Origin: a virus
Virus record (IMG/VR): IMGVR_UViG_3300043449_002688
Span: 64,001 to 128,000 of that record
Strand: one strand, 5' to 3'
DNA length: 64,000 bases
The notes under the pieces are model-generated. The model did not search any database. It was not told where the DNA came from and saw only the letters and a list, made by a program, of their open reading frames with translations. Shown here piece by piece: positions 628 to 63,657 of the stretch; the stretch's first letter is position 1; each line of letters begins with the position of its first letter. A program made the translations under genes and the position numbers.

Positions 628-3321
628 TTATTCTACAGGTCCAAGTCTTATCGCTACACCAGTTCTAGCATTTACAGTAAGAACGCCAGTAGTAACTTTT
701 ACGTAAACTCTTAACTGTTCCGTTCCGTTAAAATCTATAGTCCCTAAAGTGTTTAACCCTAAAGTAAAGTTAGAAGCAACCGACTGAACAACCCTTTCTG
801 TATTGGTTATAATTGTGCCATCTTTATATAAAGCTACATAGTTGAGAGAGTTGTTGTTTGTAGATGTCGCTGAACAATTAAAAAATACAGCGTATTTACC
901 TGCGGCTGGAGTTACAACGAAATCGGTTATTTGCTGATAAGTATTTGTTGCAGTAGTTGCGAAAGCCGTTGTTGCGCTTGCATTATAGTTTGAGATACCA
1001 GCAGCTTGAGCAACTTCCACAGAAAAAGGAGAATACATACCTTTTTGAGTAGAGTTGTCTTGTAAAATCAAAGATGAAACAGATTCTGAACTTAAAATTC
1101 CAATTGTTGTTCCATCAAAATACTTTAAAGTAATTGGGCTTGGAGTTCTGTTATAAATTTCATAATTAGTTCCAATATCTAAAGTTGTTGAATCAGGAAA
1201 AACTACGCTAAAGTTTGCAGCAGTTCCAGTTAAAAAGTGAACGCTAGAAGAAGAATTGGATAAATTTAAAGTGCCGCTATTTGTTACCGTAGTAAATGTA
1301 GGAGTTGTAACCAAAATCTTTTTAACAGATTTATTTATACTTGTTATATTAAAGTTATTTAAATTTAAACTTCCAGACATTGAACGAGTACCGTCCAATT
1401 TTAAGAAAGTTAAATCTTCTGCAATTCTAGAACTTGCTTCTGCAGAAACTGCAGTAGCTAAGCTAGAATCAGCAGAAATTCTAGCAGATGTTTCACTTGA
1501 AATTTTTGAATCTAAACTTGAATCAGCAGAAATTCTTGAAGAAACTTCAGTCGAAACAGATGCAGAGATATCAGCTATAGAATAACCATTTATCGTATTA
1601 ACATTTGTAATATTGTTAGAGTTCATGTTTAAATGGCCGCCCATTGGACGAGTACCATCAATTAAAAGATACTGAGTGTGGTCGTCATTTCCTAGGCCAG
1701 AAAGGTTAGCATGATCTCCGTTAAATACTGAAGCTGAAACTTGCCTATCGGCTCCCCAACGAATATCTAAGACAGATTTCATTGCTGCTTTAGGTGTGTT
1801 GGTGTAAGCAGAAGAAGTTTCATAAAACAAAAGATATAAAAGCTTCATTTCTTGAGCAGGAAGATCGCCAAAGCTAATTTTATCCCATGTACCATTTGCT
1901 TTAGCATCATCTAAATCAGAAAACTCAGCTTGACCAAGCAAAGCTATTACTGGTTCCTCTACATTTGTTGTAGCAAAAATATAACTAACTAAATATTTTC
2001 CATCAGCAGAAGCATCTTCTAAAGACCAAACCCCTGCTGTATTTTTATTGTATTGCGCCCTAACAGTGCCTTGGGACATAGGAAATTCTGTAGCTGTAGC
2101 TCTTTTCCATTCTGAGCCAACTCTATAAACTACAGGAATATTTGCAATTGGACTTAAAATTTGTTGAAACGGAGCAGAAGGCGAGGCGCTATTAGTAATA
2201 TTTACGGTTATGTCTTCGTCTCTGATTTGCATATCCGTAAGAGCTATTTGTGTATCAGAATCCGCAGTCCCATCCCCAGCTATATCAAAAGTAATTGATG
2301 CGCCAGAGCTAATCTGAGTGCCGCGAGTTGTATGTAAATAAGAATGCGTTGTACCGTCCATAGTAATTCCATGACGTTCTTCTCCAAATGCCACAGCTTG
2401 ATTGTCAGTAGAATTCCAATGGATAAAAGCAGTATAAGCAACTCCTGTTAAAAGAGCTGGATTAAAGGTTGTATAATAATCTAAAGCTCCGCTTGTATTG
2501 ATATATAAAAAATAATTTCCAGAAATATCGGGGATTTGTTTGGTCAAAGTAGTGGTAATTGTTTGTTTTACCCCTGAAGTATATATATCAAAGCTAGTAA
2601 TTGCTGGAGCAATAGAAAAAGTTCTTGTACTTTCATCAAAAGAAATAATAGACTGAGTTCGATCTGCGTGTCCAGTAGGTTCTTTCATGTCAACAAGAAC
2701 CGTCTTGTCTACTTTTTGATTTATTTCAGATTCAAGGCTAGAATCTGCGGCAAGACGTACTGATTCTTCCGTAGAAATACGAGTAGTTAAGCTAGAATCA
2801 GCAGAAACTCTAGCAGATGTTTCAGTAGAAAGGTCTAAAGTTAAACTTGCATCAGCAGAAGCTCTAGCAGATGTTTCAGTAGAAATTTTAGTATCAAGTG
2901 AACTATCTGCAGATACTCGTGCAGATGTTTCAGAAGAAATTAAAATAGAAACACTTGAGTCAGAAAAAATACGACTAGATTCTTCTGTAGAAATACGAGT
3001 AGTTAAACTAGAGTCGGCAGAAATTCGTGTAGATTCTTCTGCAGAGATTGCAGAAGCTAACGAGCTGTCCGAAGAGATCCTAACGGATTCTTCTGCAGAA
3101 ATTGCCGTAGCTAAACTTTCATCTGAAGAAACTCGTGCAGATGTTTCAGACGAAAGATCCATGCTAGTTTGGCCATTCAAAGCATGCCATTCGCCATTTT
3201 CATATCCATAAAATTTATCCGTTGTTTCATCGTAATAAATTTCACCATTTTGAGGATTAGAAGGGGCAGAAGTTGGTTTTAGCACCAACGATTTTGATAT
3301 TTTAAAACTATTTTTGCTCAT
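628..3321 (-). CDS. tail fibre-like protein with Ser/Ala-rich coiled-coil repeats
   Basis: N-terminal PSNPQNGEIYY module, (S)AETSARISADSSL repeats, DGTRxMxGxLNM fibre motifs, beta-rich C-terminus. Confidence 0.7.
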   Translation of the reverse strand: MSKNSFKISKSLVLKPTSAPSNPQNGEIYYDETTDKFYGYENGEWHALNGQTSMDLSSETSARVSSDESLATAISAEESVRISSDSSLASAISAEESTRISADSSLTTRISTEESSRIFSDSSVSILISSETSARVSADSSLDTKISTETSARASADASLTLDLSTETSARVSADSSLTTRISTEESVRLAADSSLESEINQKVDKTVLVDMKEPTGHADRTQSIISFDESTRTFSIAPAITSFDIYTSGVKQTITTTLTKQIPDISGNYFLYINTSGALDYYTTFNPALLTGVAYTAFIHWNSTDNQAVAFGEERHGITMDGTTHSYLHTTRGTQISSGASITFDIAGDGTADSDTQIALTDMQIRDEDITVNITNSASPSAPFQQILSPIANIPVVYRVGSEWKRATATEFPMSQGTVRAQYNKNTAGVWSLEDASADGKYLVSYIFATTNVEEPVIALLGQAEFSDLDDAKANGTWDKISFGDLPAQEMKLLYLLFYETSSAYTNTPKAAMKSVLDIRWGADRQVSASVFNGDHANLSGLGNDDHTQYLLIDGTRPMGGHLNMNSNNITNVNTINGYSIADISASVSTEVSSRISADSSLDSKISSETSARISADSSLATAVSAEASSRIAEDLTFLKLDGTRSMSGSLNLNNFNITSINKSVKKILVTTPTFTTVTNSGTLNLSNSSSSVHFLTGTAANFSVVFPDSTTLDIGTNYEIYNRTPSPITLKYFDGTTIGILSSESVSSLILQDNSTQKGMYSPFSVEVAQAAGISNYNASATTAFATTATNTYQQITDFVVTPAAGKYAVFFNCSATSTNNNSLNYVALYKDGTIITNTERVVQSVASNFTLGLNTLGTIDFNGTEQLRVYVKVTTGVLTVNARTGVAIRLGPVE

Positions 3322-30345: not shown

Positions 30346-31500
30346 TTATTTCACTGAGGTCATTGCATTTTCAATCAAAACTTCATACTTGGAAATATTT
30401 TCAGGATTGTTTATCATATATCTGTAAGCAAATTCTCGTGACTTCTTAAGATACTTTTCATTTGGATGCTCAACGCTATCAAAATGCTTAGCAATATAAT
30501 TTATATGCTCTACAGCAATAACGGAATTGTTTTCTGGATAATACCAGCCTAAATCTTTCATCATAGGGCTGTTGTGAACTACAGGCCAGCCAAGCCAAGC
30601 AGCATCAAGATAAAGATAATTTAATTCGCAACCATTTTGATGGCAAAGTAAAATATCTACGTGTTTATACAGTGACCAAACAACTGGATATCGTGCTTCG
30701 AATGTCATCTTTTTGGCTTTATAAATATCTAGCCCAATAGCAAAGTTAATTAGGTCTTTTTTCTTTTTAACTTCTGCTGCACCAAATACTTTCATGTCGC
30801 CAACTGATTCAGGATATTTTCTGTATAATAATTCCGCAGTAATGATAGGAACTGAGCAAGTTTTAACCATATTTAGGTTGGGCTCCATAGTTGCTATTTT
30901 CTTTGCTTGAACCCCATTTGGCGCATAAACTCCATTGTAATCTGAGTTTTCTTTTTTTAAGACTTCAACGTGATGTTGGATAAACCTTGGGTCCCAGATA
31001 TATGGTCCTTCTAAAACTGGACAATCAAACATTGCTTCAAAAAAGTAACGATCTCGATCATAAAAATGGCCGCTCATCCAAATAGCGCTCAAATGAGGGT
31101 TTCTTGAATAAATCCCACTAGTAGGAAGATTAAATAACATAACCTCGTTAAACATATTAAGTTCTGCTCCAAGAACTTGCTTAACGATTTTTTTACCTTT
31201 GCTTTTAAAGTGAGCATATTCATCTAAATGTAAACTGCCATGACAAACTACAATTAGATCGCACTTTTCTTCAATCTCTTCTAATGGAATTATGTAATCA
31301 GCGTAAGGCTCCCAAGACGTATTTTTAAAACTTTCTTTTGTTACGTTGGGATGGGCATTGATGATATATGCATTGTTGACGTTTTTACATTTAGAATACA
31401 TTTCTCTAAGCAAAATAACATTTTGCCTAATGCCATTGCTAAATAACGAATCTTCTTTAGGGTTTTTAATAATTATTGTAATGCCAACATTATATTTCAT
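30346..31500 (-). CDS. DUF2827-family protein (glycosyltransferase-like)
   Basis: NGIRQNV N-terminus, PYIWDP, EPN.NMVK, HQ....LNYLYLDAAWLGWPVVHNS signature. Confidence 0.75.
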   Translation of the reverse strand: MKYNVGITIIIKNPKEDSLFSNGIRQNVILLREMYSKCKNVNNAYIINAHPNVTKESFKNTSWEPYADYIIPLEEIEEKCDLIVVCHGSLHLDEYAHFKSKGKKIVKQVLGAELNMFNEVMLFNLPTSGIYSRNPHLSAIWMSGHFYDRDRYFFEAMFDCPVLEGPYIWDPRFIQHHVEVLKKENSDYNGVYAPNGVQAKKIATMEPNLNMVKTCSVPIITAELLYRKYPESVGDMKVFGAAEVKKKKDLINFAIGLDIYKAKKMTFEARYPVVWSLYKHVDILLCHQNGCELNYLYLDAAWLGWPVVHNSPMMKDLGWYYPENNSVIAVEHINYIAKHFDSVEHPNEKYLKKSREFAYRYMINNPENISKYEVLIENAMTSVK

Positions 31501-31614
31501 TTTGCCGCCTTAGATTGTGTTTATTTATAATTAATATACTTGCAAAAAGACTTAAAATCAAGTTTAATTGTCTTTAATGAGAATATCTAAAATTGATACA
31601 TTTGTAAAAAATAC

Positions 31615-31642
31615 TTGATTATTTTTGTTAGTATGATATTCT
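31615..31642 (+). promoter_or_regulatory. sigma70-type early promoter
   Basis: TTGATT-16 nt-TATTCT with extended -10 TG; same architecture as the 35.6/36.1 kb repeats. Confidence 0.75.
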
Positions 31643-31670
31643 ATGTTTGTACCTAACCAAAGGAGCTTTT

Positions 31671-31907
31671 ATGTTTAAGGCAATGGAAGATCTAATTGAA
31701 GAAGGTAAAACTGTTGATTTGCGCCTTCGCCCTTCTTATCGTCTTGGTTTCCTTAAAGGTGCAACTATGGTTACAAAAATTCAGCTTGAAACTCTTATGG
31801 AGAAAATCCAAAGAGGTGACAGCAAAGAAAGCCTTGAAAGATATGTGACTTCTATTTTGGCTGATTTGGCTAGGACTGAAGAAGCTGTAGAAAAAATGGG
31901 TTCTTAA
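31671..31907 (+). CDS. hypothetical early protein
   Basis: AAGGAG RBS then ATG 31671. Confidence 0.7.
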   Translation: MFKAMEDLIEEGKTVDLRLRPSYRLGFLKGATMVTKIQLETLMEKIQRGDSKESLERYVTSILADLARTEEAVEKMGS

Positions 31908-31919
31908 AAAGGAGCATGT

Positions 31920-32117
31920 ATGTCACGTATAAAATGTGCCGTATGCAATAAAAACCCAGTTAAAACTAAAATTTCTAAGCACTGGAAAACAAATAAGATT
32001 ATTAAACTTTACGAAGCTACTTGCAATGGCTCTGATTGCGTTAACCAGTATAACGAAGTTTTAGCCGAGCTTTCTTTTCAAGAAGTATATTTTAGTTCGG
32101 AGTCTAACAATGGATAA
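31920..32117 (+). CDS. hypothetical zinc-finger-like protein
   Basis: CAVC and CNGSDC; AGGAG RBS. Confidence 0.6.
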   Translation: MSRIKCAVCNKNPVKTKISKHWKTNKIIKLYEATCNGSDCVNQYNEVLAELSFQEVYFSSESNNG

Positions 32118-32358
32118 CTGCCCTAATTGCAAGTCTAGCTGGATTGGTGAGCCAATTCCTGAAGTCCTTCGTCAGCATTACGGCGATGAAACTCATTGGC
32201 GCAGAGAAATAAACATTGACGGTGGCTACATGGGCATTTATGATGGAATAGTCGCAGTTATATGCCCAGACTGCAAAGAAGAATTTCCCCGAAACGATAG
32301 TTCTTGGGCGTTAGAAATGTTTAAGAAGTACCAAGAGGCTGTAAATGAGAGTAAATAA
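32110..32358 (+). CDS. zinc-ribbon protein
   Basis: CPNC ... CPDC. Confidence 0.65.
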   Translation: MDNCPNCKSSWIGEPIPEVLRQHYGDETHWRREINIDGGYMGIYDGIVAVICPDCKEEFPRNDSSWALEMFKKYQEAVNESK

Positions 32359-32947
32359 AGAAATAATCTCAAAATTAGGTCCATGTAAAAATAGGTTCGA
32401 TAATTATTTAGAATATTACTCTGACTTTGATGGAACCTTACAAGAATTTATTTTGCTAGATAAAATTACTCATAAAGACAAAATTTGGGTAATTACAAAG
32501 CTTTTTGATGACAAGCAAAAAAGTAAATGGGCTATTAAATGTGCTTTTAGCGTTTTATATATATACGAAAAGAGTTTTCCGTCTGACGATAGACCAAGAA
32601 AAGCTATAGAAGCCGCACAGGAATGCCTAAGTAATCCTGCTGCTCGTGCTGCTGCTTATGCTGCTGCTGATGATGCTGCTCGTGCTGCTGCTTATGCTGC
32701 TCGTGCTGCTGCTTATGCTGCTGCTTATGCTGCTTATGCTGCTGCTTATGCTGCTGATGATGATGTTACTCGTGCTGCTCGTGCTGCTGTTGATGCTGCT
32801 CGTGCTGCTGCTTATGCTGCTGCTGATGATGCTGCTCGTGCTGCTGCTTATGCTGCTGATGATGATGTTACTCGTGCTGCTGCTTATGATACGCAAAAAC
32901 AACTTAATTTAAAGTTTGCTATCGAGGTCTTAAATGAAACGAAGTGA
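32345..32947 (+). CDS. Imm5-like (putative immunity) protein with Ala-rich repeat
   Basis: VL.IYEK.FP.DDRPRKAIEAA motif followed by AARAAAYAA repeats. Confidence 0.7.
   Translation: MRVNKEIISKLGPCKNRFDNYLEYYSDFDGTLQEFILLDKITHKDKIWVITKLFDDKQKSKWAIKCAFSVLYIYEKSFPSDDRPRKAIEAAQECLSNPAARAAAYAAADDAARAAAYAARAAAYAAAYAAYAAAYAADDDVTRAARAAVDAARAAAYAAADDAARAAAYAADDDVTRAAAYDTQKQLNLKFAIEVLNETK
32639..32890 (+). repeat. low-complexity (GCT)n-based coding repeat
   Basis: Built only from T-ending codons GCT/CGT/TAT/GAT/GTT/ACT. Confidence 0.95.
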
Positions 32948-33167
32948 AATGATTGACCATATTGTCGCTGAGATGGTAGATGCTGAAGCCAATAGAAAAT
33001 ATAGCAACGAAGCAGGCGAAGCTTATTTTAAGCGTAGAGCGGTTAGCTTACTAGATATGATTGAAGGGTTCGGTATGCTGCCTCCAGAGGTTCCGACTCT
33101 GACTATCAATGGCGTCTCTTTTATAGCTAAAAATATTTGGGAGCCTGAAGATGAAAGCACTAAATGA
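32934..33167 (+). CDS. MKRSEM-family paralogue 3
   Basis: MKRSEM...GMLPP...NIWEPEDE. Confidence 0.8.
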   Translation: MKRSEMIDHIVAEMVDAEANRKYSNEAGEAYFKRRAVSLLDMIEGFGMLPPEVPTLTINGVSFIAKNIWEPEDESTK

Positions 33168-33606
33168 AGCATTGAATGAACTATCTTGGCAATTAAAAAA
33201 AATTTCGCCATCTTTTAGTCAGGAAATTGATAGGTGTTTAACTGATTGGGCAGAAAAGAATTTTGATGTAATGTCTATCACTACGCATTTAAGCCAAGAA
33301 ATGGAGAATAGCGCTGCTGATCCCAGTTCTTTAAAAGCGCATTTATTGCAAAAAGCTCTATACGAGTCTGCAATTCAAATTGGTGCCAAATACGGTTTTG
33401 GGCAAGAAGAAGTAAAAATGCCTTGGAATCATTTAAGTAGGTCTACCGACTATTATGCTACATGGAAAGTAAATCCACATCAATATTCAAAAGAATTGTC
33501 TTTATCATTTGTTGTTTTGAAAAGACATCCTACATCATGGGGTTCTAATGAAAGCACAAGTGATTGGGTTAAAAAAATAGTAGGGGCTAAAAATGAAACG
33601 AAGTGA
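33151..33606 (+). CDS. hypothetical protein within the MKRSEM array
   Basis: Starts at the GGGAGCCTGAAG-ATG junction; ends NETK overlapping the next start. Confidence 0.7.
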   Translation: MKALNEALNELSWQLKKISPSFSQEIDRCLTDWAEKNFDVMSITTHLSQEMENSAADPSSLKAHLLQKALYESAIQIGAKYGFGQEEVKMPWNHLSRSTDYYATWKVNPHQYSKELSLSFVVLKRHPTSWGSNESTSDWVKKIVGAKNETK

Positions 33607-33838
33607 AATGATTGAGCATATTGCCGCTGAGATGGTAGATGCTGAAGCCAATAGAAAATATAGCAACGAACCCAAGCAAGATTATTATTTACGTAAAGCT
33701 ACCGGACTATTAGATATGATTCAGGGATTTGGTATGCTGCCTCCAACTGTAGATGGAATTATTGAAGTTGAAAAGACTAATGATGAGGGCCTAGCCTTAA
33801 AGCTTTGGAGTTGGGAGCCTGAAGATGAAACGAAGTGA
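33593..33838 (+). CDS. MKRSEM-family paralogue 4
   Basis: First 78 bp differ from paralogue 3 at 2 positions; WEPEDETK end. Confidence 0.8.
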   Translation: MKRSEMIEHIAAEMVDAEANRKYSNEPKQDYYLRKATGLLDMIQGFGMLPPTVDGIIEVEKTNDEGLALKLWSWEPEDETK

Positions 33839-34262
33839 GATGGTTACATATCTTCATAATTTATTAAATACGTTTGAAAATTGCAGTCTAGATCGAGCAG
33901 CAGTAGATGAAATCCTAGAAGGATTAGAGAGCATGGGCATGCAACTAGTTGAGCAGTTAGAAGTAGTCCCTTGGGAGCCTGAAGAAGGCTGGGATATATA
34001 CTTACAAAAACAAGACGAAAAAGCCGAAGCTCGTGACTTCCATATCGCACCTAGACTGAATCCTTATAAAAACACCTATGATTATGAAATGACTACTCCC
34101 ATGATAATAGCTAATAGGTATTTATGGGGAGAATCTATTAAAGATCTTGCTAACGCATATAATGTGCCTCGTGAACGAATTAGGCAAATAATAGCAAAAG
34201 AACGGCGTAGATATCAAAATTGGAAAAAAAGCCAACAAGGGTCTGAAGATGAAACGAAGTGA
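33825..34262 (+). CDS. MKRSEM-family paralogue 5 fused to sigma70 region-4-like HTH
   Basis: MKRSEM...WEPEE then SIKDLANAYNVPRERIRQIIAK. Confidence 0.75.
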   Translation: MKRSEMVTYLHNLLNTFENCSLDRAAVDEILEGLESMGMQLVEQLEVVPWEPEEGWDIYLQKQDEKAEARDFHIAPRLNPYKNTYDYEMTTPMIIANRYLWGESIKDLANAYNVPRERIRQIIAKERRRYQNWKKSQQGSEDETK

Positions 34263-34515
34263 AGTAGTAAAACAATTAACCGAACGATTTGAGCAAATGG
34301 ATTTGAATATTACTCCAGGCGTACTGGCAGAAATCGCTATGAGGATTGTTGAAGATGCAGGCATGCAACCTCCAAACATTACACTAAAAGAAATGTTCCC
34401 CGACTCGCCATTGCTTACAGCAGAAAATCATTATTATGGTGTTTGGGAAGAAGAAGATCTAAGCAGCTATCCTTCAATGACTGAAGATATCGACGACGTT
34501 CCTTTAAAAGGATAA
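34249..34515 (+). CDS. MKRSEM-family paralogue 6
   Basis: MKRSEV...EDAGMQPP...VWEEED. Confidence 0.75.
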   Translation: MKRSEVVKQLTERFEQMDLNITPGVLAEIAMRIVEDAGMQPPNITLKEMFPDSPLLTAENHYYGVWEEEDLSSYPSMTEDIDDVPLKG

Positions 34516-34517
34516 TT

Positions 34518-34736
34518 ATGAACAAACGTGAGCAAATTTTACTTGATTATGTTATTCAAAAAAGCTACACTGATCCAGAAGCTCAAGAAGTTTTAAATCA
34601 ATATGATGCTGAAAGAACAGGGCAAGAGTACAGCTCTGTAGCTTTAGTTAATTCCCTTATTAGAGATGGAAACATCAAGCTTGCTGAGCGAATTTTACAG
34701 TGTATGACTGGCGGAGATTATAAATATGAAACTTAA
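34518..34736 (+). CDS. hypothetical protein
   Basis: AAGGA RBS; operon packing. Confidence 0.6.
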   Translation: MNKREQILLDYVIQKSYTDPEAQEVLNQYDAERTGQEYSSVALVNSLIRDGNIKLAERILQCMTGGDYKYET

Positions 34737-34938
34737 AGAGCAATTAGAACTACAAAAAGACATCGAAGTTCCTTGGCATGTTTTTAGGTTTTTTGATGGT
34801 AATACAAAAAAGATTGTTTTGGCTGGAGATCAAGCAAGTTTATCTTCAGAAGGCGATTTTGGCAGCTTACAAGAGCTACAAAAAGCCGTACAATGGTATG
34901 TAGAGCAACTGGGCGGTAAAGTTAAGTGGGATAAATAA
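34726..34938 (+). CDS. hypothetical protein
   Basis: GGAG RBS; overlap with previous gene. Confidence 0.6.
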   Translation: MKLKEQLELQKDIEVPWHVFRFFDGNTKKIVLAGDQASLSSEGDFGSLQELQKAVQWYVEQLGGKVKWDK

Positions 34939-35001
34939 TCCAAGCTAAACATCTAATATTAATAGTTTATTCTATATTGGAATATGGAATAAGAACAGAG
35001 T

Positions 35002-35262
35002 GTGGTAATTAATATGGAAAGCGTACTTTGGCTATTTACAGGTACATTCTATTCTGGAGTATTGTTAACTGTAGGCTTGTTTGTATATAAGATTATTAAA
35101 AATCAACCTTCTAAAAAGCTGTTTATTAATTTCTTAAAAATCTTAGGGATTGGGTTTGTTGCTTCTATGTTTCCTTGGCTTTTGTTTGGATTACTAGGGT
35201 TCCCTTCTGTTTTAGTAGCGAGTATAGCTGTTACCTTTGTCTTTCAAAAAGAACTTTCGTGA
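35002..35262 (+). CDS. multi-TM membrane protein
   Basis: Three hydrophobic segments. Confidence 0.55.
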   Translation: MVINMESVLWLFTGTFYSGVLLTVGLFVYKIIKNQPSKKLFINFLKILGIGFVASMFPWLLFGLLGFPSVLVASIAVTFVFQKELS

Positions 35263-35392
35263 GGCTTTATGGAGCTTTTAATTGTTAGCCCTGTAATTCT
35301 TTTCTGTACTTTAGTTTTAGCAGTTGGCTTTTTAAAGTTAACTGAACATTTCGATTCCGAAGATTAATCTTTTAAAAATTAAAGGCAATAAA

Positions 35393-35617
35393 ATGAAAAC
35401 AAAGTTTTATGCAAAAGATACAAGTAACGGCGATTTTTTTCCAGAACCTAAATTAATCCAAGCCGATATGGGCATTCTTATTGAGTATGGAAACAAAAAA
35501 TTTACTATTCAAGAAGATAATTTCGGCAGGCTCATTCTAACGTCTGTCGGTTCAGGATTAGGTTTGGTTTTAACGCCCAGAAGCTGGAATTCTGTTGTTA
35601 TAAGTTCTGAAGATTAA
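35393..35617 (+). CDS. hypothetical protein
   Basis: ATG with AAGG RBS. Confidence 0.55.
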   Translation: MKTKFYAKDTSNGDFFPEPKLIQADMGILIEYGNKKFTIQEDNFGRLILTSVGSGLGLVLTPRSWNSVVISSED

Positions 35618-35702
35618 ATCTCAAAACAATACATATATAAAAAATACTTGATTATTTTTATAGTCATGGTATTCTGTATTTGTAAGTAGGTAATTAACTG
35701 AA
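35617..35702 (+). repeat. 86-bp direct repeat copy 1 containing an early promoter
   Basis: Identical to 36117-36202 except one base; contains TTGATT-16-TATTCT with TG extension. Confidence 0.9.
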
Positions 35703-35872
35703 ACTAGACATTTTTATTTGATGTGGTGATTAGTGGAGATTTATTTTGGCATCGGTTTTGGGGTTTGGCTGGGTTTATTCTCTTACCGACTTAAAAGAGA
35801 CAAGTTTAAGTATATTATGTACCATGTAACCCCTATAAGTTTTTTGAGGGGTTTTATAGGTGCGGTTTTATT

Positions 35873-36151
35873 TTGGCCCATTTGCATATTTTTAATCCAG
35901 GAGTGATTAGAAAAAATATCCAGCGTCCTCCCTGTCCGTTTAATGATTTTGGTAAAAATCGTAATCCAGAAAATGATATGATCGAAAGTTCTGGTGGTCT
36001 TTGTGGCGTTAAGCCTGGACTTAAAAGCATTGGTTGGGATTTTGAAAATCATATTGACAATTCAAAATTTGAAGTTACTTGCCCTAAATGCAAGAAGAAG
36101 CTCGAAAAGTTAGTTGAATCTCAAAACAATACATATATAAAAAATACTTGA
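35873..36151 (+). CDS. hypothetical Cys-containing protein (start uncertain)
   Basis: LCG...VTCPKC motif; runs into repeat copy 2. Confidence 0.45.
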   Translation: MAHLHIFNPGVIRKNIQRPPCPFNDFGKNRNPENDMIESSGGLCGVKPGLKSIGWDFENHIDNSKFEVTCPKCKKKLEKLVESQNNTYIKNT

Positions 36152-36202
36152 TTATTTTTATAGTCATGGTATTCTGTATTTGTAAGCAGGTAATTAACTG
36201 AA
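36117..36202 (+). repeat. 86-bp direct repeat copy 2 containing an early promoter
   Basis: Exactly 500 bp after copy 1; followed by GGAGG and ATG. Confidence 0.9.
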
Positions 36203-36212
36203 GGAGGACCCA

Positions 36213-36371
36213 ATGATCAAAGTAACTTATAAAAGCAATTATAAAGTTAAAGAAGGTCGTAAGTGGGTCGAAAAAACTTCTCAGTGGGATGAAGTGATTA
36301 AAACTGAAGCCGACGCTAGATTGCGAGCTTTGGCCCTTAACTGGCAAATCGTTAAGGTGGAGTCTGTATGA
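36213..36371 (+). CDS. hypothetical 52-aa early protein (not in ORF track)
   Basis: AAGGAGG RBS; MIKVTYKSNYKVKEGRKW...; ATGA overlap with next gene. Confidence 0.75.
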   Translation: MIKVTYKSNYKVKEGRKWVEKTSQWDEVIKTEADARLRALALNWQIVKVESV

Positions 36372-36634
36372 AAAATTTAGCACAAATGATGCAAAGAGTT
36401 TTTCAAATTAAAAAGGGCGATATTTTAACTAAAGGCGACCTTTATATAATGAATCAAGCAACTGATCAAATTTTGTCCGAATATGATACCTTAAATCCTG
36501 ATTCTTTTGATGATTCACAAAAATTAGACGAATATGATTATTTTTTGGATTATTGTGAAGAAAGTCTAACTGATAGCCTAAAAAAGGCTAGGATTAGAGA
36601 GAGTGGTTTAAAGCTCGTAGTCAATAATTCTTAA
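36368..36634 (+). CDS. hypothetical acidic protein
   Basis: GGAG RBS; ends GLKLVVNNS. Confidence 0.65.
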   Translation: MKNLAQMMQRVFQIKKGDILTKGDLYIMNQATDQILSEYDTLNPDSFDDSQKLDEYDYFLDYCEESLTDSLKKARIRESGLKLVVNNS

Positions 36635-36663
36635 AAAACAATTTTGTCGAATTTGGATATCAT

Positions 36664-36819
36664 ATGAAAAAACAAATTGATAAAAAAGTCAGAGCAAAAG
36701 CTTTAAAGGATTTGACTAAAAACGGCAAAAACCGTTATATGATTGCGCAATTAGACCGTCTCATGTCAGACAAAGAGACCCTAGAAATCCTCAACGCTTT
36801 ATTTGCTGCGACAAATTAA
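36664..36819 (+). CDS. hypothetical 51-aa protein (not in ORF track)
   Basis: MKKQIDKKVRAKALKDL... Confidence 0.5.
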   Translation: MKKQIDKKVRAKALKDLTKNGKNRYMIAQLDRLMSDKETLEILNALFAATN

Positions 36820-36856
36820 TATTGCTTTTTTAATTAAACTTTGACAGAATACACAT

Positions 36857-36933
36857 GGACACTTAGCTTAGCTGGTGAAAGCATCCCGCTCATAACGGGA
36901 GGATCGTAGGTTCGAGTCCTACAGTGTCCACCA
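36857..36933 (+). tRNA. tRNA with CAT anticodon, probably tRNA-Ile2 (lysidine type); elongator Met possible
   Basis: GGACACT/AGTGTCC acceptor with paired G1-C72 (not initiator), TCCCG-CTCATAA-CGGGA, GTAGG-TTCGAGT-CCTAC, ACCA end. Confidence 0.92.
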
Positions 36934-37199
36934 TTTTTCGCTGGAGTTTTTATGCTCTTACTTATGACTTATTTCGTTGCTATCCATACTGCCGCAGTCG
37001 TAATTGATTTGTGTAACAAATCGTTAAATTAAAGAGTTATAGCGCCTCAATTTGAGACATGGAGTTTAAGGATCTTTGCTTTTAAGCCAAAATATAGATC
37101 GAAACTCTAGTTTTAGGTCTATTTTTAAAGAAAATGGAGCGGTCTCTTTAGAAAAGAGCTAATATATAGACTAGTAACAAATGATATTTAGGAGATATT

Positions 37200-37415
37200 A
37201 TGGCAATGGGTATATTAAAATATAAACTGCCGGAAGAAAAATCAGAATTTGAATTGGCTCAAGCTGCCGGAGGTCTTTATTCAGATATTTATACCTTTGA
37301 ACAGTGGCTTCGTTCAGTATGGAAATATTCAGACAAAAAAGAGCTTACAGTTCAAGAAATTCGTGATAAATTTTACGAAGTAATGCAAACGTATCAAAAC
37401 ATAGAAGAAGATTAA
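37200..37415 (+). CDS. hypothetical phage protein
   Basis: AGGAG RBS; L.Y.LPEE..EF..A pattern common in phage ORFs. Confidence 0.7.
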   Translation: MAMGILKYKLPEEKSEFELAQAAGGLYSDIYTFEQWLRSVWKYSDKKELTVQEIRDKFYEVMQTYQNIEED

Positions 37416-37487
37416 AAGGTGTTGATATGAACGGTGTATTGGTGTTATTATTAGTAGTGTTAATCCTCATCTCTCTATCTGACTAAG

Positions 37488-37721
37488 GTGGTAAGTATGA
37501 AGCAAGGTTGGGTTCTTATTAATTGGACTGGCAATCGTTGGGTTACTAATGGGCCAAAAGTTTATGAGGACTTAAACGAAGCTAAATACGAAGCTAAGCA
37601 AGCTGAATTGCCGTACACAAGAACTCTACATATTACTTGGTTAGATTGCCTGGAAGAATGGCCTGAACCTGACTTTTTCCAAAAACTAGAAAAAGAAAGA
37701 TTAATCAATGAAAAAGAATAA
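37488..37721 (+). CDS. hypothetical protein
   Basis: ORF with probable ATG at 37497. Confidence 0.55.
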   Translation: MVSMKQGWVLINWTGNRWVTNGPKVYEDLNEAKYEAKQAELPYTRTLHITWLDCLEEWPEPDFFQKLEKERLINEKE

Positions 37722-37881
37722 TGTTTATTACATGTCTGCTTTTATTAGCCAAACTCGTGAAATGGCAGTAAAACATTCCTCTCTTTTGAAAAACATAAAA
37801 GACTATGCTGAGACTGGCGAAAACAAATATTTGGATAAATCTAAAATGCGCAAACCTAATGGGTCTTTACCTAAGCGCTAA
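37708..37881 (+). CDS. hypothetical 57-aa basic protein (not in ORF track)
   Basis: MKKNNVYYMSAFISQ...; 14-nt overlap with previous gene. Confidence 0.5.
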   Translation: MKKNNVYYMSAFISQTREMAVKHSSLLKNIKDYAETGENKYLDKSKMRKPNGSLPKR

Positions 37882-37939
37882 TATTTATCTTACGCAAATG
37901 CCGTAAGATTTTACGCAATCTTAATAAAACAATTTAATT

Positions 37940-37981
37940 TACAATCCCTTGCAGATGGATTTGCGAGGGTTGTACCCTTTT
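37940..37981 (+). terminator. hairpin / probable terminator
   Basis: TACAA-T-CCCTTGCAGA / TTTGCGAGGG-TTGTA stem with G.U pairs, T run shortly after. Confidence 0.55.
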
Positions 37982-38002
37982 GATACGTTCATAAAAATAT
38001 AT

Positions 38003-38031
38003 TTGCAAAAGTTACACAGCAATCATATACT
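38003..38031 (+). promoter_or_regulatory. sigma70-type promoter
   Basis: TTGCAA-17 nt-TATACT upstream of AGGAGG RBS. Confidence 0.6.
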
Positions 38032-38059
38032 GATTATGCACTAACCAAAAGGAGGAATT

Positions 38060-38341
38060 ATGCGTATCGCTCTAGACAATAATTGCCCAAGCTGTGTAAT
38101 TAAAAAACTAGAAAAAAATGGCCACACTGTAGTTTTATATGCTAGACATGAAATGGATGAAGATTGGGTAAGTACAGCTCTTTCTCTTGGCGCAGATCTA
38201 TTTATATCAAATGATCTAGATATCGTTAATATGCTTGATCGTTGGAATGAATCAGCAGCTTTCATTGAGTTGCCTCAACGAGTATCTGGCTACAGACTTT
38301 CAGAATGGATTGTCAAACAAGTAAAACTTTTGGCTGCATAA
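38060..38341 (+). CDS. PIN-like domain protein (DUF5615/Mut7-C type)
   Basis: MRIALDNNCP..V...L...GH.V....DEDW...A......ISND pattern. Confidence 0.7.
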   Translation: MRIALDNNCPSCVIKKLEKNGHTVVLYARHEMDEDWVSTALSLGADLFISNDLDIVNMLDRWNESAAFIELPQRVSGYRLSEWIVKQVKLLAA

Positions 38342-38436
38342 TAATTGTCTTGTTTTGATATAATTGTAAAAATATAATTGTTTTTGAAATAAAAGTATAA
38401 TAATATAAATAAAGAACACAAACAGAGGAGTTTAGA

Positions 38437-39387
38437 ATGGCACATGAAGTAGAAAATATGATGTACGTTGGTTCACGCCCTTGGCATGGTCTTGGCCGCG
38501 CTTTCGAGGTTCCACCTACGTTAGAAGAGGCTATCATTGCTGCTGGACTCAACTGGAATGTCGGTCTGAGAAAGTTACAGACTGTAGACACTATGGAAGC
38601 TGTTTCAGCTATGGCGACTTACCGAGAGACCGATAACCGTATCCTTGGGGTAGTAGGCCCTAATTATCGCCCGCTGCAGAACTCAGAAGCTTTTGATTTC
38701 TTCCGTCCGTTTATTGATGCTAACGAAGCTTCAATTGAGACTGCAGGCTCTTTGCGTGATGGTCAACGAGTGTTTGTTTTAGCTAAAATTAACCGTGACC
38801 CAATGGTTGTAAAAGGTAATGACGTAGTAGACAAATACGTTCTACTTTCTAACTCACATGATGGCACTTTGGCCGTTAGAGTTGGGTTTACGCCAATCCG
38901 AGTAGTTTGCAATAATACTTTGACTTTGGCTCATAACGACAAAGCATCAAGACTACTTCGCGTCAAGCATAGTGGTAATTTGGTACAAAACTTGGAAAAA
39001 ATCCAAGAAGTAATGAACTTGGCTAACGCTGAGTTTGAAGCTACTGCAGAACAGTACAGAGTTTTGGCTTCTAAGCAAATTAGCTCGCAAGATCTGGAAA
39101 AGTACGTTAAAATCGTATTTGCCCAGAAAAAGACTCTGGAAGAAAAGTCTGTAGAAGAAATTAATTCACGAGTTATTAGCAGCGTACTTCCTTTGTTTGA
39201 GCAAGGTCGTGGAAACGACATGCAAGAGATTAAAGGCACTTACTGGGCTGCGTACAATGCAGTAAATGAATACCTTCAATATGAGCGTGGAGAAACAGAG
39301 CAAAGCCGATTTGACAGCTTGTGGTTTGGTTCTTCTGCACAGTTGAACAAAAAAGCTTTGGAAACAGCTTTGATAATGGCTGCTTAA
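38437..39387 (+). CDS. DUF932-family phage/plasmid protein (TIGR03299-like)
   Basis: MAHEVE, PWHGLG, Y.PLQNSEAFDFF, ETAGSL..G, NSHDG, TPIRVVCNNTL, GTYWAAYNAV.EY. Confidence 0.9.
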   Translation: MAHEVENMMYVGSRPWHGLGRAFEVPPTLEEAIIAAGLNWNVGLRKLQTVDTMEAVSAMATYRETDNRILGVVGPNYRPLQNSEAFDFFRPFIDANEASIETAGSLRDGQRVFVLAKINRDPMVVKGNDVVDKYVLLSNSHDGTLAVRVGFTPIRVVCNNTLTLAHNDKASRLLRVKHSGNLVQNLEKIQEVMNLANAEFEATAEQYRVLASKQISSQDLEKYVKIVFAQKKTLEEKSVEEINSRVISSVLPLFEQGRGNDMQEIKGTYWAAYNAVNEYLQYERGETEQSRFDSLWFGSSAQLNKKALETALIMAA

Positions 39388-39459
39388 TTAATTGATTTTT
39401 AAAATGTGATGGATTACACTAAACCCATGGATGGGTTTTTAATTAATGAGGTAAAAAAA

Positions 39460-39651
39460 ATGAGCGATAAGGTTCCAGATTTTAATCCAGAAGATGCAGT
39501 TGAACTAAGCGAACAGGAATCGGCTGCATTTGGAAATTTAGTTAAACAAATGGATGAAGCTATGAAAGCTGGCGATGATGAGCTTTTGGTATCATTGAGA
39601 GGTCAAATGGACGAGTTCTTCAAGCAAGTTTCTGAAAGCAGAACAAAGTAA
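39460..39651 (+). CDS. small acidic helical protein
   Basis: GAGGT RBS, ATG 39460; QMDEAMKAGDDELLVSLR. Confidence 0.65.
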   Translation: MSDKVPDFNPEDAVELSEQESAAFGNLVKQMDEAMKAGDDELLVSLRGQMDEFFKQVSESRTK

Positions 39652-39697
39652 TATGGCTAAACGCGCCTTTGAAGTTTCTTCTGTTTTCGGAGTTTTC

Positions 39698-39892
39698 ATG
39701 GGGAAAGTTATTTCATTGGATGAGTTTAAACGCCTCAAGGAACGAGGCGAATCTATTCAGAAGCTACTAAAAATAGCCATGGAAGCGGCGGAGAACGGTA
39801 ACGAAGAGCTACTTTTGGCCATGGAAGATGAGCTAGAAGAATTATTAGAATTAGAATTAGAATTAAATTTAATTAAAGACAAGGATGAATAA
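39698..39892 (+). CDS. small acidic helical protein, similar to the preceding one
   Basis: GGAG RBS, ATG 39698; GKVISLDEFK start; AMEAAENGNEELLLAM. Confidence 0.65.
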   Translation: MGKVISLDEFKRLKERGESIQKLLKIAMEAAENGNEELLLAMEDELEELLELELELNLIKDKDE

Positions 39893-39967
39893 CAGGGAGC
39901 AAGGAAGCTCCCGTTGTAAGCATTTAGCAGGACGCTATTTTGAGCAGGACGCTCAGTGCTTATGGTT

Positions 39968-39996
39968 CCCCAGCTCCGTAAAAAGAGCTGGGTTTT
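39968..39996 (+). terminator. intrinsic terminator
   Basis: CCCAGCTC / GAGCTGGG then TTTTT. Confidence 0.85.
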
Positions 39997-40001
39997 TATT
40001 T

Positions 40002-60969: not shown

Positions 60970-63657
60970 TTATGCTATAGCATTATCTTTAACTGCTATA
61001 AATCTTTGATAAATAGTGTTATACATAGAGAACGTTCCACCAATGCAAACTTTTCCATCATTTTTTACAAGCACAGCATTAACTATACCGATAATTTTTC
61101 CGCCATCAACTATAGCAGTCATGAATGTAGAATCAAGCACACCAGAACTGTTAACTTTAATTAAACAGTTTCTATTAGTTGCGCCTGGATATCCTGTAAA
61201 TCCTCCACCAACGTAAATAACATTATCTGAATCAAGAACTATAGAGTTAACAGCTCCATTAACAATCTTACTTCCATCAACTGCATTGGTCATAAACGTA
61301 GTGTCAAGATTTCCAGAGCTATCAGCTTTAATTAAGCGACTTCTTCCAACTGTACCGCCATAAGTAATAAAATCTCCTCCAATGTAAACGTTGTTGTTTG
61401 AGTCTGCAATAATCGCATAGACGATATTGCTAAACTTTGTGCCATCAACTGCATTGGTCATAAATGTAGTATCAAGTACACCAGAGCTATTAACTTTAAT
61501 TAAACGATTTCTTCCTGATGTACCAGCATAAGAAGTAAATGCTCCTCCAATGTAAACATTGTTGTTTAAATCTTTAGCAATTGCAAAAACCGTACTACTA
61601 AATTTTGTGCCATCGACTGCATTAGTCATAAATGTAGTATCAAGCACACCGGAGCTATTAACTTTAATTAAACGATTTCTTCCTGATGTATTGTTATAAT
61701 TAGTAAAAGCTCCACCAATGTAAATATTGTCATTTGAGTCAATTGCTATTGCTCGAATAGTGCTGCTAAATTTATTTCCATCAACTGCATTAGTCATGAA
61801 TGTAGAATCAAGCACACCAGAGCTATTAACTTTAATTAAATAGTTTCTAAAATTTGTTCCACCATAAGTAATAAAATCTCCACCAATGTAAACATTGTTG
61901 TTTGAATCAATAGCAATAGAATAAATTTGATTATTAAATTTACTTCCATCAACTGCATTAGCCATGAATGTAGCATCAAGCACACCAGAACTATTAACTT
62001 TAATTAAACGATTTCTTCCTGATGTATTGCCATAATTAGTAAAGTTTCCACCGATGTAAACGTTATTGCTTGAATCTGTAGCAATGGCAGAAATTTGGTT
62101 ATTAACAAAAGAAATCCCAATAACATTTGTTACAAAAGGTTCAGATAATACTCCGCTAGTTGAAACTTTAGTTAAATAATTAAAAAACAATCCGCCTATA
62201 TAGATATTATCGTTTAAATCTTTAACAACAGTGAAAACTGTATTATTTAATTTAGCTCCATCAACTGCGTTGGTCATAAATGTAGTATCAAGTACACCAG
62301 AGCTATTAACTTTAATTAAACGATTTCTGTTAGTTGTGCTGGCGTAGTTAATAAAATCTCCTCCAATGTAAATGTCGTTGTTTGAGTCAATTGTAATAGA
62401 ATTAATTACTGCACTGATCTTGCTTCCATCAACTGCATTAGTCATAAATGTAGTATCAAGCACCCCAGAGCTATTAACTTTAATTAAACGATTTCTTCCT
62501 GATGTACCAGCATAAGAAGTAAAGTTTCCTCCAATGTAAATATTAGAATTTGAATCTACAGATATGGCAAAAACAGCTCCTCCAACAAATTTAGCTCCAT
62601 CAACTACATTAGTCATGAATGTAGAATCAAGAGTACCAGAGCTATTAACTTTAATTAAATAACCTCTACCTGAAGTTCCTCCGTAAGAAGTAAAAGCTCC
62701 ACCAACATAAACATCATTGTCAGAAAGGATAAGGACTTTGTTAACCCCAAAATTAAATTTACTTCCATCAACTGCATTAGTCATAAATGTAGTATCAAGC
62801 ACACCGGAGCTATTAACTTTAATAAGACTATTTCTACCTGCTGTACCACCATAAGTAATAAAATCTCCACCAATATAAACGTTATCGTTTGAATCAATAG
62901 CTATAGTAGCTACCAAACGGTTAACTGCTCCAGGAAACTTTCCGCCATCAACTGCATTAGTCATGAATGTAGAATCAAGCACACCAGAACTGTCAACTTT
63001 AATTAAACAACTTCTGTTAATTCCGCCGTAGTTAGTAAATTGTCCACCAATGTAAACATTATCGTTTGAATCAATAGCAATAGAATAAATTTGACCATTA
63101 AATTTAGCTCCATCAACTGCATTGGTCATAAATGTAGTATCAAGTACACCAGAGCTATTAACTTTAATTAAATAGTTTCTAAAAGTTGTATTATTGTAGT
63201 TTGTAAACCCTCCACCGATATAAACGTTACCATTTGAATCAGTAGCAACAGCCCGAACGGTACTGGATATCAAAGATTTTCCCGCAATGGCTTGAGTAAA
63301 AGTAATTAAACTTTCAAGCTGCATAGTTAGCCCAGGAGGAATATCTGACTTACTAACAGCAAAAGATCCACCATCAAAATCCACTAAGATAATTTTTAAA
63401 ACATTAAATTGTGCTCTGGCTTTTTGCGAAAAAAGTATAAAAGTTTCAGGAGTAGCTTGAGACAAATCAAAGATAATATTTTTAAGCTGTTCGCCTTCAG
63501 AGGACTTATAGATTACTTTTGCAAGTTTAACGTTTTGTGGATCTGAAAAATAACTATCTGCAACAACTGACGCTAAATCAAATAATGCAGTTTTATCTAG
63601 TGTTACAGAAAACACTACGTTTTTAGCTGCAGACTCTGTTCCGTTTATTAATGCCAT
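60970..63657 (-). CDS. Delta-60-type repeat beta-propeller receptor-binding protein
   Basis: 14 repeats of about 57 aa (I..DSNNNVYIGG.F..Y....RNRLIKVNSSGVLDTTFMTNAVDG.KF) after a 115-aa N-domain. Confidence 0.85.
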   Translation of the reverse strand: MALINGTESAAKNVVFSVTLDKTALFDLASVVADSYFSDPQNVKLAKVIYKSSEGEQLKNIIFDLSQATPETFILFSQKARAQFNVLKIILVDFDGGSFAVSKSDIPPGLTMQLESLITFTQAIAGKSLISSTVRAVATDSNGNVYIGGGFTNYNNTTFRNYLIKVNSSGVLDTTFMTNAVDGAKFNGQIYSIAIDSNDNVYIGGQFTNYGGINRSCLIKVDSSGVLDSTFMTNAVDGGKFPGAVNRLVATIAIDSNDNVYIGGDFITYGGTAGRNSLIKVNSSGVLDTTFMTNAVDGSKFNFGVNKVLILSDNDVYVGGAFTSYGGTSGRGYLIKVNSSGTLDSTFMTNVVDGAKFVGGAVFAISVDSNSNIYIGGNFTSYAGTSGRNRLIKVNSSGVLDTTFMTNAVDGSKISAVINSITIDSNNDIYIGGDFINYASTTNRNRLIKVNSSGVLDTTFMTNAVDGAKLNNTVFTVVKDLNDNIYIGGLFFNYLTKVSTSGVLSEPFVTNVIGISFVNNQISAIATDSSNNVYIGGNFTNYGNTSGRNRLIKVNSSGVLDATFMANAVDGSKFNNQIYSIAIDSNNNVYIGGDFITYGGTNFRNYLIKVNSSGVLDSTFMTNAVDGNKFSSTIRAIAIDSNDNIYIGGAFTNYNNTSGRNRLIKVNSSGVLDTTFMTNAVDGTKFSSTVFAIAKDLNNNVYIGGAFTSYAGTSGRNRLIKVNSSGVLDTTFMTNAVDGTKFSNIVYAIIADSNNNVYIGGDFITYGGTVGRSRLIKADSSGNLDTTFMTNAVDGSKIVNGAVNSIVLDSDNVIYVGGGFTGYPGATNRNCLIKVNSSGVLDSTFMTAIVDGGKIIGIVNAVLVKNDGKVCIGGTFSMYNTIYQRFIAVKDNAIA
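61020..63270 (-). repeat. about 171-bp coding tandem repeats with near-identical cores
   Basis: ccatcaactgcatt(a/g)gtcat(a/g)aatgtag(t/a)atcaag...gagctattaactttaattaaa recurs with few changes. Confidence 0.9.

Follow-up and report, generated by a model that had tools for sequence, protein, structure and literature searches.

CsrA/RsmA is a global regulator of carbon use and motility, and some messenger RNAs are at once its targets and its titrators, the fim leader of Salmonella being an example. The flaA mRNA of Campylobacter jejuni is a CsrA target that titrates CsrA as well: the sites, AAGGA motifs in hairpin loops, are carried by the 5′ leader, and experiments demonstrated binding as well as repression and titration (PMC4894983). 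Mobile elements tamper with the Csr/Rsm system through CsrA/RsmA proteins encoded by phages and plasmids (PMC8450108, PMC7366521, PMC9928087), and in some bacteria the same regulator controls CRISPR-Cas (PMC8450108). A precedent of another kind is provided by the PeSL (promoter-early stem-loop) cassettes of the T4-type phages RB49 and phi1, in which a stem-loop ends upstream transcription and a promoter restarts it (PMC2839356). The present work concerns a locus of an uncultivated freshwater myovirus, at positions 39388-39892 of a window of 64,000 nucleotides that corresponds to bases 64001-128000 of the linear, 154,801-bp virus record IMGVR_UViG_3300043449_002688 (33.5% GC). The locus consists of a 72-nt leader, located downstream of a gene for a DUF932 protein, and of two small adjacent open reading frames (ORF1 and ORF2), followed by a structured 3′ region. 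Coordinates refer to the window unless otherwise indicated.

In the reading favored here, to which we assign a probability of about 0.5, the span is an early-gene cassette of ordinary type on which a small number of non-random hairpins with GGA in their loops are superimposed. It differs from that of a first-pass annotation, in which the entire 600-nt transcript was viewed as a coding mRNA serving in addition as a multivalent decoy for CsrA, or else as an mRNA translated under CsrA control.

Stable GGA-loop hairpins and gene boundaries

All hairpins with a perfect stem, a loop of 3-9 nt and a free energy not above -5 kcal/mol were enumerated, and those with a whole GGA in the loop were counted. 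Genome-wide, these GGA-loop hairpins make up 18 of 480 hairpins on the + strand (3.75%) and 23 of 437 on the - strand. Between positions 37850 and 39960 their share rises to 6 of 17 (hypergeometric P 1.1e-5), the six being located at 37946-37969, 39206-39219, 39421-39438, 39731-39749, 39895-39912 and 39940-39956. This 2.1-kb cluster (37946-39956) is unique in the genome, as local RNAfold, an independent method, found no other 2.1-kb window on either strand with more than two GGA-loop hairpins. Dinucleotide shuffles of the region contain 0.34 such hairpins on average and 3 at most in 400 shuffles, against the 6 observed; when the 3′ element is left out, four are still present against the same mean of 0.34. 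For positions 39388-39892 alone, two stable GGA-loop hairpins are observed where dinucleotide shuffling yields 0.13 (P 0.007). Even allowing for statistics computed post hoc in a region rich in GC and in hairpins, the surplus of GGA in the local loops is hard to put down to chance.

The hairpin CGCCTC-AAGGAAC-GAGGCG (39731-39749, + strand) lies inside ORF2 and is one of three that had been listed in the first-pass annotation, all with exact coordinates. It withstood closer analysis: its free energy is -9.1 kcal/mol and its GGA is unpaired with a probability of 1.0. The segment encodes Arg-Leu-Lys-Glu-Arg-Gly as CGC, CTC, AAG, GAA, CGA and GGC. In the long genes of the phage, CGC and CGA account for 6.7% and 12.7% of the Arg codons, CTC for 1.3% of the Leu codons, AAG for 12% of the Lys codons and GGC for 26% of the Gly codons. 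An equally strong GGA-presenting hairpin appeared in 0.2% of the synonymous resamplings performed with phage-wide codon usage (P 0.002), in 0.5% of the permutations of the codons of ORF2 itself (P 0.005) and in 0.9% of the resamplings performed with the usage of the surrounding early island (31500-40000, + strand genes; P 0.009). The hairpin is built from rare synonymous codons and is non-random.

Further downstream in ORF2, an imperfect 11-bp hairpin with one bulge (39812-39839, + strand) displays the GGAAG contributed by consecutive Ala, Met and Glu codons; the minimum-energy fold of the 600-nt RNA contains this hairpin, and its GGA is unpaired with a probability of 0.99. Outside the span noted in the first pass, an intergenic hairpin with a stem of 9-10 bp and an ATGGAT loop (37946-37969, + strand, -13.3 kcal/mol) is flanked on one side by a terminator-like hairpin and on the other by the next promoter-like site, and two G-U pairs render it specific to the + strand. 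The ATGGAT loop is carried by three different stems, all of them intergenic: this one, that at 39421 (6-7 bp) and a weak one at 39405. The small GGAA-loop hairpin inside the DUF932 gene (39206-39219, + strand, -5.1 kcal/mol), which is counted in the cluster, is probably due to chance, as the closest relative encodes the GRGND of this segment in other codons and forms no hairpin.

Two side observations were made on the same island. An intergenic hairpin with a UGGA tetraloop (34966-34993, + strand, -7.9 kcal/mol) is located 27 nt past a stop codon, with the next ATG following at about 20 nt, and among the four stable TGGA-tetraloop hairpins of the genome three are intergenic, all three in the early island. 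A palindrome CTTAC...GTAAG at 37889-37907 was considered as a GacA box and rejected by eye, its half-sites being in the wrong order.

The structured region downstream of ORF2 (39893-39995, + strand) comprises the hairpin GGGAGC-AAGGAA-GCTCCC, two hairpins with AGGAC loops and an intrinsic terminator (39969-39992), and its fold has a z-score of -4.4. A full-length match to rsmX at 39888-39995 remains sub-threshold, with 16.4 bits against a gathering score of 56. At the gathering score, the Rfam search of the window returned two tRNAs only and no family of clan CL00106; at E values up to 10, it returned nothing inside 39405-39892. The paired AGGAC motif of the 3′ element was found in 14 viral contigs, in all cases as unrelated coding repeats in GC-rich phages. 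On the - strand, the hairpin 39895-39912 scores as an intrinsic terminator followed by TGTTATTCAT and could end a convergent late gene of 2191 amino acids.

In the nearest relative, the phage fragment L021, a true terminator stands directly behind the DUF932 gene (64% identical), and the genes beyond it are unrelated. As ORF1 and ORF2 are absent after DUF932 in this relative, the pair behaves like a movable cassette that was inserted or lost. The L021 terminator, with a GAGC-AAGG-loop-GCTC structure, resembles the hairpin 39895-39912, the alignment being too short to prove homology. The same fragment contains, at its positions 2595-3025, two tandem ORFs which start with MKRSLKQKW and then consist almost entirely of a GGTCTN-type hexanucleotide repeat, open in several frames and translated as GS/WS/RS dipeptide runs; their MKRS start echoes the MKRSEM family of the window.

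These arrangements would also suit hairpins that are only gene-boundary elements, whether terminators or attenuators, 3′ stabilizers or recombination hot spots of the PeSL type, with GGA in their loops by ancestry or chance. Three hairpins of the cluster each follow a stop codon (that at 37946 after 37879-37881, that at 39421 after 39385-39387 and that at 39895 after 39890-39892), the DUF932 gene of the relative ends with a true terminator of similar sequence, the UGGA-loop hairpin at 34966-34993 provides a further intergenic case in the same island, and positions 39912-39895 read on the - strand as a terminator for the convergent 2191-amino-acid gene. Such a purely structural role, however, leaves unexplained both the presence of GGA in 6 of the 17 local hairpins against 3.75% genome-wide and the hairpin of rare codons amid ORF2, a stem-loop without a U run; moreover, differing stems with common loops are the pattern expected of loop recognition. 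We therefore consider it an unlikely explanation, albeit the best placed of the rivals.

Composition of the two orphan genes and motif density

ORF1 (39460-39651, + strand, 63 amino acids) is preceded by the Shine-Dalgarno (SD) sequence GAGG at 39448-39451, 8 nt before its ATG. ORF2 (39653-39892, + strand, 79 amino acids) starts 1 nt past the ORF1 stop codon and possesses an alternative start at 39698, preceded by GGAG. The in-frame coding scores amount to 0.43 for ORF1 and 0.26 for ORF2, the off-frame mean being -1.33 and the 99th percentile -0.49, and both score as genuine coding segments. Both products are acidic and are predicted to be helical hairpins: single-sequence AlphaFold2 models place helices at residues 18-37 and 40-62 of ORF1 (predicted local distance difference test, pLDDT, 87.6) and at residues 22-47 and 51-76 of ORF2 (pLDDT 66). 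A turn motif, G-(D/N)-(D/E)-E-L-L, is common to the two proteins and BLASTP yielded no significant alignment of one with the other, so that paralogy would have the shared predicted fold and the turn motif as its sole basis. Near the 3′ end of ORF2 (39840-39866), a short tandem run of GAATTA encodes Glu-Leu repeats, and this low-complexity tail is modelled at lower confidence than the core.

No homologue of ORF1 or ORF2 was found in viral contigs, and each retrieved only itself among 5.8 billion proteins. ORF2 retrieved only itself when 1.84 billion representatives were searched exhaustively with HMMER, the ESM Atlas gave nothing above 0.79 for ORF1, Pfam and PHROGs gave nothing significant for either protein, and a fold search with the ORF1 model produced only generic helical hairpins, none with E<0.001.

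The first-pass annotation had counted about 13 ANGGA/CAGGA sites by eye in 39400-39960. The count is correct, with 10 A.GGA and 3 CAGGA, nine of the sites being inside 39405-39892 and four in the 3′ element. The density of this 560-nt stretch is the genome-wide maximum on the + strand both for A.GGA (10 against a genome mean of 1.6, standard deviation 1.6) and for GGA (17-18 against a mean of 5.2, standard deviation 2.7). Among 163 genes ranked for sense-strand motif density, ORF2 comes first and ORF1 second, the latter having been scored from the ATG at 39409 for this ranking, which includes both ATGGAT sites of the leader.

Three codon-preserving null models were applied, consisting in synonymous resampling according to phage usage, permutation of the synonymous codons of each ORF and permutation of codon order. 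Under these models, 4.4-5.4 A.GGA motifs are expected in the ORFs, where 6 are observed (P 0.17-0.42), and 9.4-10.7 GGA, where 12 are observed (P 0.13-0.30). Ten of these 12 GGA arise at the junction of a codon ending in G with an Asp or Glu codon (G|GA), as in Gln-Met-Asp (twice), Ala-Met-Glu (twice), Lys-Glu and Lys-Asp, and the two proteins together are rich in Glu (17%, compared with 6.5% in long genes) and in Met (5.6%, compared with 2.0%). The high ANGGA count of the ORFs is a by-product of Met/Lys-Asp/Glu dipeptides and does not constitute an array of binding sites. Since codon-preserving shuffles reproduce the counts, the motif density of the ORFs is no evidence for a sponge; this comparison had been set in advance as a test able to refute the density argument and, with no excess over the shuffles (P 0.13-0.42), it does refute it. 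Raw ANGGA counts are misleading in acidic, Met-rich genes, and signal can be separated from composition by an energy-based count of motif-presenting hairpins combined with synonymous resampling. The dual function suggested in the first pass is retained in part only: the RNA does carry more than coding information, as seen in the rare-codon hairpin of ORF2 and in the genome-unique cluster, and the decoy with thirteen sites is lost with the density test.

The presentation of the motifs was evaluated with the partition function of the 600-nt RNA. Among the 12 GGA of the ORFs, five are mostly paired (probability unpaired 0.31 or less) and only three lie in a hairpin loop and are unpaired with a probability of about 0.7 or more. 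A coding mRNA acting with its roughly 13 ANGGA/CAGGA sites as a multivalent CsrA decoy, after the manner of CsrB or RsmZ, appears very unlikely in view of these numbers. Its attraction comes from the genome-wide + strand maximum of GGA density, from the first two ranks of ORF2 and ORF1 among the 163 genes, from the adjoining, strongly folded 3′ element with its GGA loops and weak rsmX-like match, and from the existence of dual-function mRNAs that titrate CsrA, such as flaA of Campylobacter jejuni (PMC4894983). Against it stand an ORF density equal to that of codon-preserving shuffles, the pairing of five of the 12 GGA, Rfam matches that are all below threshold, strict orphan ORFs that give no conservation signal, and a phage which lacks csrA.

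The leader and its candidate sites

A promoter-like site, TTGATT-N17-TACACT (39392-39420, + strand), is present in the 72-nt spacer that follows the DUF932 gene and may serve as an early promoter. Its TTGATT is identical to the -35 hexamer of a repeated early promoter of the phage, TACTTGATTATTTT...TGGTATTCT (repeat families D2 and D5), of which four copies are found in 31.6-36.2 kb. The pattern TTGA[TC][TA]-N16-18-TAnnnT has 59 matches, 16 of which, including the leader site, fall in the intergenic 6.5% of the genome, corresponding to an approximately four-fold enrichment in intergenic DNA. The repeated promoter is itself part of an 89-nt module located at 31581-31669, 35614-35702 and 36114-36202; two of its copies are 98% identical and 500 bp apart, forming a PeSL-like repeat family.

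The two leader hairpins reported in the first pass are of unequal value. Hairpin 1, TGTG-ATGGAT-TACA (39405-39418, + strand), overlaps the -10-like hexamer and is thermodynamically negligible, with a free energy of +0.1 kcal/mol as a hexaloop or -0.6 kcal/mol as a tetraloop; it is absent from the minimum-energy fold of the leader, and its GGA is unpaired with a probability of 0.77. Hairpin 2, AAACCC-ATGGAT-GGGTTT with its T run (39421-39443, + strand, stem-loop 39421-39438), is stable and displays UGGA or AUGGAU, the hexaloop form (-6.2 kcal/mol) and the form with a 7-bp stem and a UGGA tetraloop (-6.7 kcal/mol) being nearly isoenergetic. It is retained in both the minimum-energy and the centroid folds of the 600-nt RNA, with a GGA unpaired probability of 1.0. 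Hairpin 2 begins 1 nt after the -10 hexamer, and its stem is followed by a GGGTTTTT run and then by TTAATT; judged from this arrangement, it probably attenuates or terminates transcription that reads through from the DUF932 gene. The 72-nt leader as a whole folds no better than its shuffles (z -0.84). No viral contig contains the exact 18-mer of hairpin 2, and blastn against phage records returned no match. Alternative start codons at 39406, 39409 and 39427 were rejected, as only that at 39460 has an SD.

The alternative proposal of the first pass was that CsrA controls the translation of the two ORFs as a sensor of host state; in such a model, a CsrA dimer would bridge the two leader ATGGAT sites and repress or activate initiation. 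Several features would agree with it: the two A(N)GGA sites start at 39409 and 39427, 18 nt apart and 22-50 nt upstream of the start codon, which is within the spacing of about 10-60 nt found in CsrA leaders; site 2 lies in a stable hairpin loop; and among the five genomes in which the phage Map protein has its closest cellular relatives, four encode CsrA. The usual feature of such control is nevertheless lacking, since the SD of ORF1 (GAGG) contains no GGA, neither the SD nor the start codon is covered by a GGA site, and the closest GGA hairpin, ending at 39438, stops 10 nt upstream of the SD. In addition, site 1 is outside any stable hairpin and the leader is no more structured than shuffles. 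If the promoter at 39392-39420 fires, the transcript would start inside hairpin 2, without hairpin 1 and its site, and the leader hairpins would then exist only on the RNA reading through from DUF932. Translational control by CsrA is accordingly judged improbable.

Weighing of the readings and comparison with known systems

The phage record has an estimated completeness of 96% (CheckV). Its myovirus-like genes include those of a portal, a major head protein and baseplate proteins, and one virion protein is 57% identical to a protein of cyanophage S-RIM32. The replication genes encode a split DnaE-type polymerase, DnaB, DnaG and a RecA-like protein, and GroEL, two ClpP, Def and Map are encoded additionally. 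The only public DNA run listed as containing the phage is a freshwater metagenome, which may be the source, and no RNA run is listed. GGA is found upstream of 87 of the 163 predicted starts; because the phage relies on such strong SD sites, initiation in its host would be SD-led. No homologue of CsrA, RegA, Hfq or ProQ was found in the phage. The closest cellular relative of the Map gene (genome positions 60995-61768) belongs to a metagenome-assembled genome of Pseudobdellovibrionaceae (51% identity), followed by relatives from SAR86 and Planctomycetes (37-42%); the capsid protein of the phage has no match in the Pseudobdellovibrionaceae genome. The Map relatives are a weak hint to the host lineage, neither decisive nor sufficient to identify the host.

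Many of the genes with the highest GC content at third codon positions (GC3) in the genome are found in the early island (0.33-0.45 against a genome mean of 0.22), which suggests recent acquisition or a different selection on early genes. A 93-amino-acid ORF of the same island (38060-38341, + strand), 1.2 kb downstream of the phage tRNA-Met, shows weak similarity to PIN_10 (E 1.1e-3) and DUF5615 (E 6.8e-3), both below the Pfam cut-offs, and may encode a small PIN-like RNase.

In the favored reading, the locus would be organized in two layers. The first would be a gene-boundary module of 72 nt, composed in this order of a stop codon in AT-rich DNA, a promoter-like site of the early type, a stem-loop carrying a U run, the SD GAGG and the ATG; it would work like the PeSL cassettes flanking orphan genes in T4-type phages and lead into two adjacent genes for small acidic, predicted helical-hairpin proteins whose composition creates most of the ANGGA motifs. 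The second layer would consist of stable hairpins showing (A/U)(A/U)GGA(A/U), some located at gene boundaries and others within ORF2 or the 3′ region. Within the span, it would amount to two stable GGA-loop hairpins (39421-39438 and 39731-39749) and probably to the imperfect one at 39812-39839. The occurrence of like loops on unrelated stems, together with the apparent recoding of a coding segment, suggests that the loops are recognized in the RNA. They would be read by an RNA-binding factor, for which a host protein of the CsrA/RsmA type is the only known candidate. The loops AUGGAU, AAGGAAC and GGAAG fit CsrA-type sites, which makes binding plausible; that a CsrA-type protein does bind these hairpins is, on the sequence evidence, doubtful rather than likely. 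Were this the case, the contribution of the mRNA, beyond the sites of the 3′ element, would be some two to three sites and not thirteen.

A number of points weigh against the favored reading. Both ORFs are strict orphans and offer no comparative support. The promoter match of the leader is weak (8/12, below the consensus-scan threshold), and the repeat finder at its threshold did not group the leader with promoter families D2/D5. The statistics of the cluster are post hoc, having been computed once the region was already flagged, and the region is both richer in GC (38.6% against 33.5%) and hairpin-rich (17, where 2.1 kb contain 6.5 on average). No such hairpin cluster exists in the related phage fragment G006. 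The raised GC3 of the whole early island somewhat weakens the argument drawn from rare codons. The likeness to PeSL is lessened by replication genes that are not of the T4 type, the polymerase being DnaE-type rather than T4 gp43. Finally, the Map relatives give no more than a hint as to the presence of CsrA in the host.

A more ambitious extension, in which the early DUF932-ORF1-ORF2 mRNA together with the 3′ element would be a phage-made antagonist or client of host CsrA/RsmA, its coding sequence recoded with rare codons to display GGA loops, is unlikely at present. If CsrA/RsmA does read the loops, the phage would manipulate or sense a global regulator by means of RNA instead of a protein copy, and regulatory hairpins would have been written into a coding sequence by recoding. 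Stabilization of mRNA is known to result from pairing of the ribosomal anti-SD with SD-like sequences (STAB-SD). That the loops are read by such an anti-SD or by a phage factor, for instance the PIN-like 93-amino-acid protein acting as a loop-specific RNase, is nonetheless hard to credit: the weak PIN_10/DUF5615 match (E 1e-3) does lie in the same island and AAGGAA loops do match five bases of the SD heavily used by the phage, but the PIN match is below the Pfam threshold, AUGGAU and AGGAC loops are poor SD mimics, RegA, Hfq, ProQ and CsrA homologues were not found in the phage, and cleavage sites of the T4 RegB type were rejected, as none of the loops is GGAG. Loop recognition accounts for the rare-codon hairpin in the middle of ORF2 more simply than do readers of this kind or a mere boundary function.

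When compared to the known systems, the locus resembles the PeSL cassettes in its AT-rich upstream stop, putative sigma70-like early promoter, adjacent stem-loop that may act as a terminator or attenuator, SD and small orphan gene within a plastic early region. The likeness extends to the stem of hairpin 2, which contains a C run and a G run, to an orphan pair that is absent from the nearest relative, and to the position of these orphans in an island of small + strand genes. It differs from PeSL in that the replication genes are not T4-type, the leader is only weakly similar to the promoter family of the phage and stands outside any repeated motif family of about 100 bp, and promoter and terminator activity are here predicted. 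PeSL loops are not known to have a GGA motif in common.

As in flaA, a coding mRNA carries (A)AGGA in hairpin loops and could bind and titrate CsrA. Unlike in flaA, the best sites are distributed over one hairpin of the leader, one or two of the coding sequence and the 3′ region, with no site over the SD; as a CsrA leader, the locus has the spacing of two sites and not the overlap with the SD. With CsrB, CsrC, RsmX, RsmY and RsmZ (Rfam clan CL00106), it shares several loop GGA on one transcript ending in an intrinsic terminator. The known sponges, however, are non-coding and have many closely spaced GGA loops, whereas 39405-39892 is devoid of an Rfam match and offers only two to three well-presented GGA over 490 nt of coding RNA; as a sponge, the span falls short in Rfam match, density and presentation. 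Unlike the phages and plasmids that encode CsrA, this phage lacks csrA and would carry an RNA ligand instead, and a literature search turned up no reported phage carrying an RNA ligand of the Csr/Rsm system. The novelty of the locus relative to these systems is modest but real, and resides in a genome-unique cluster of GGA-loop hairpins which extends into a coding sequence within the orphan cassette of this uncultivated phage.

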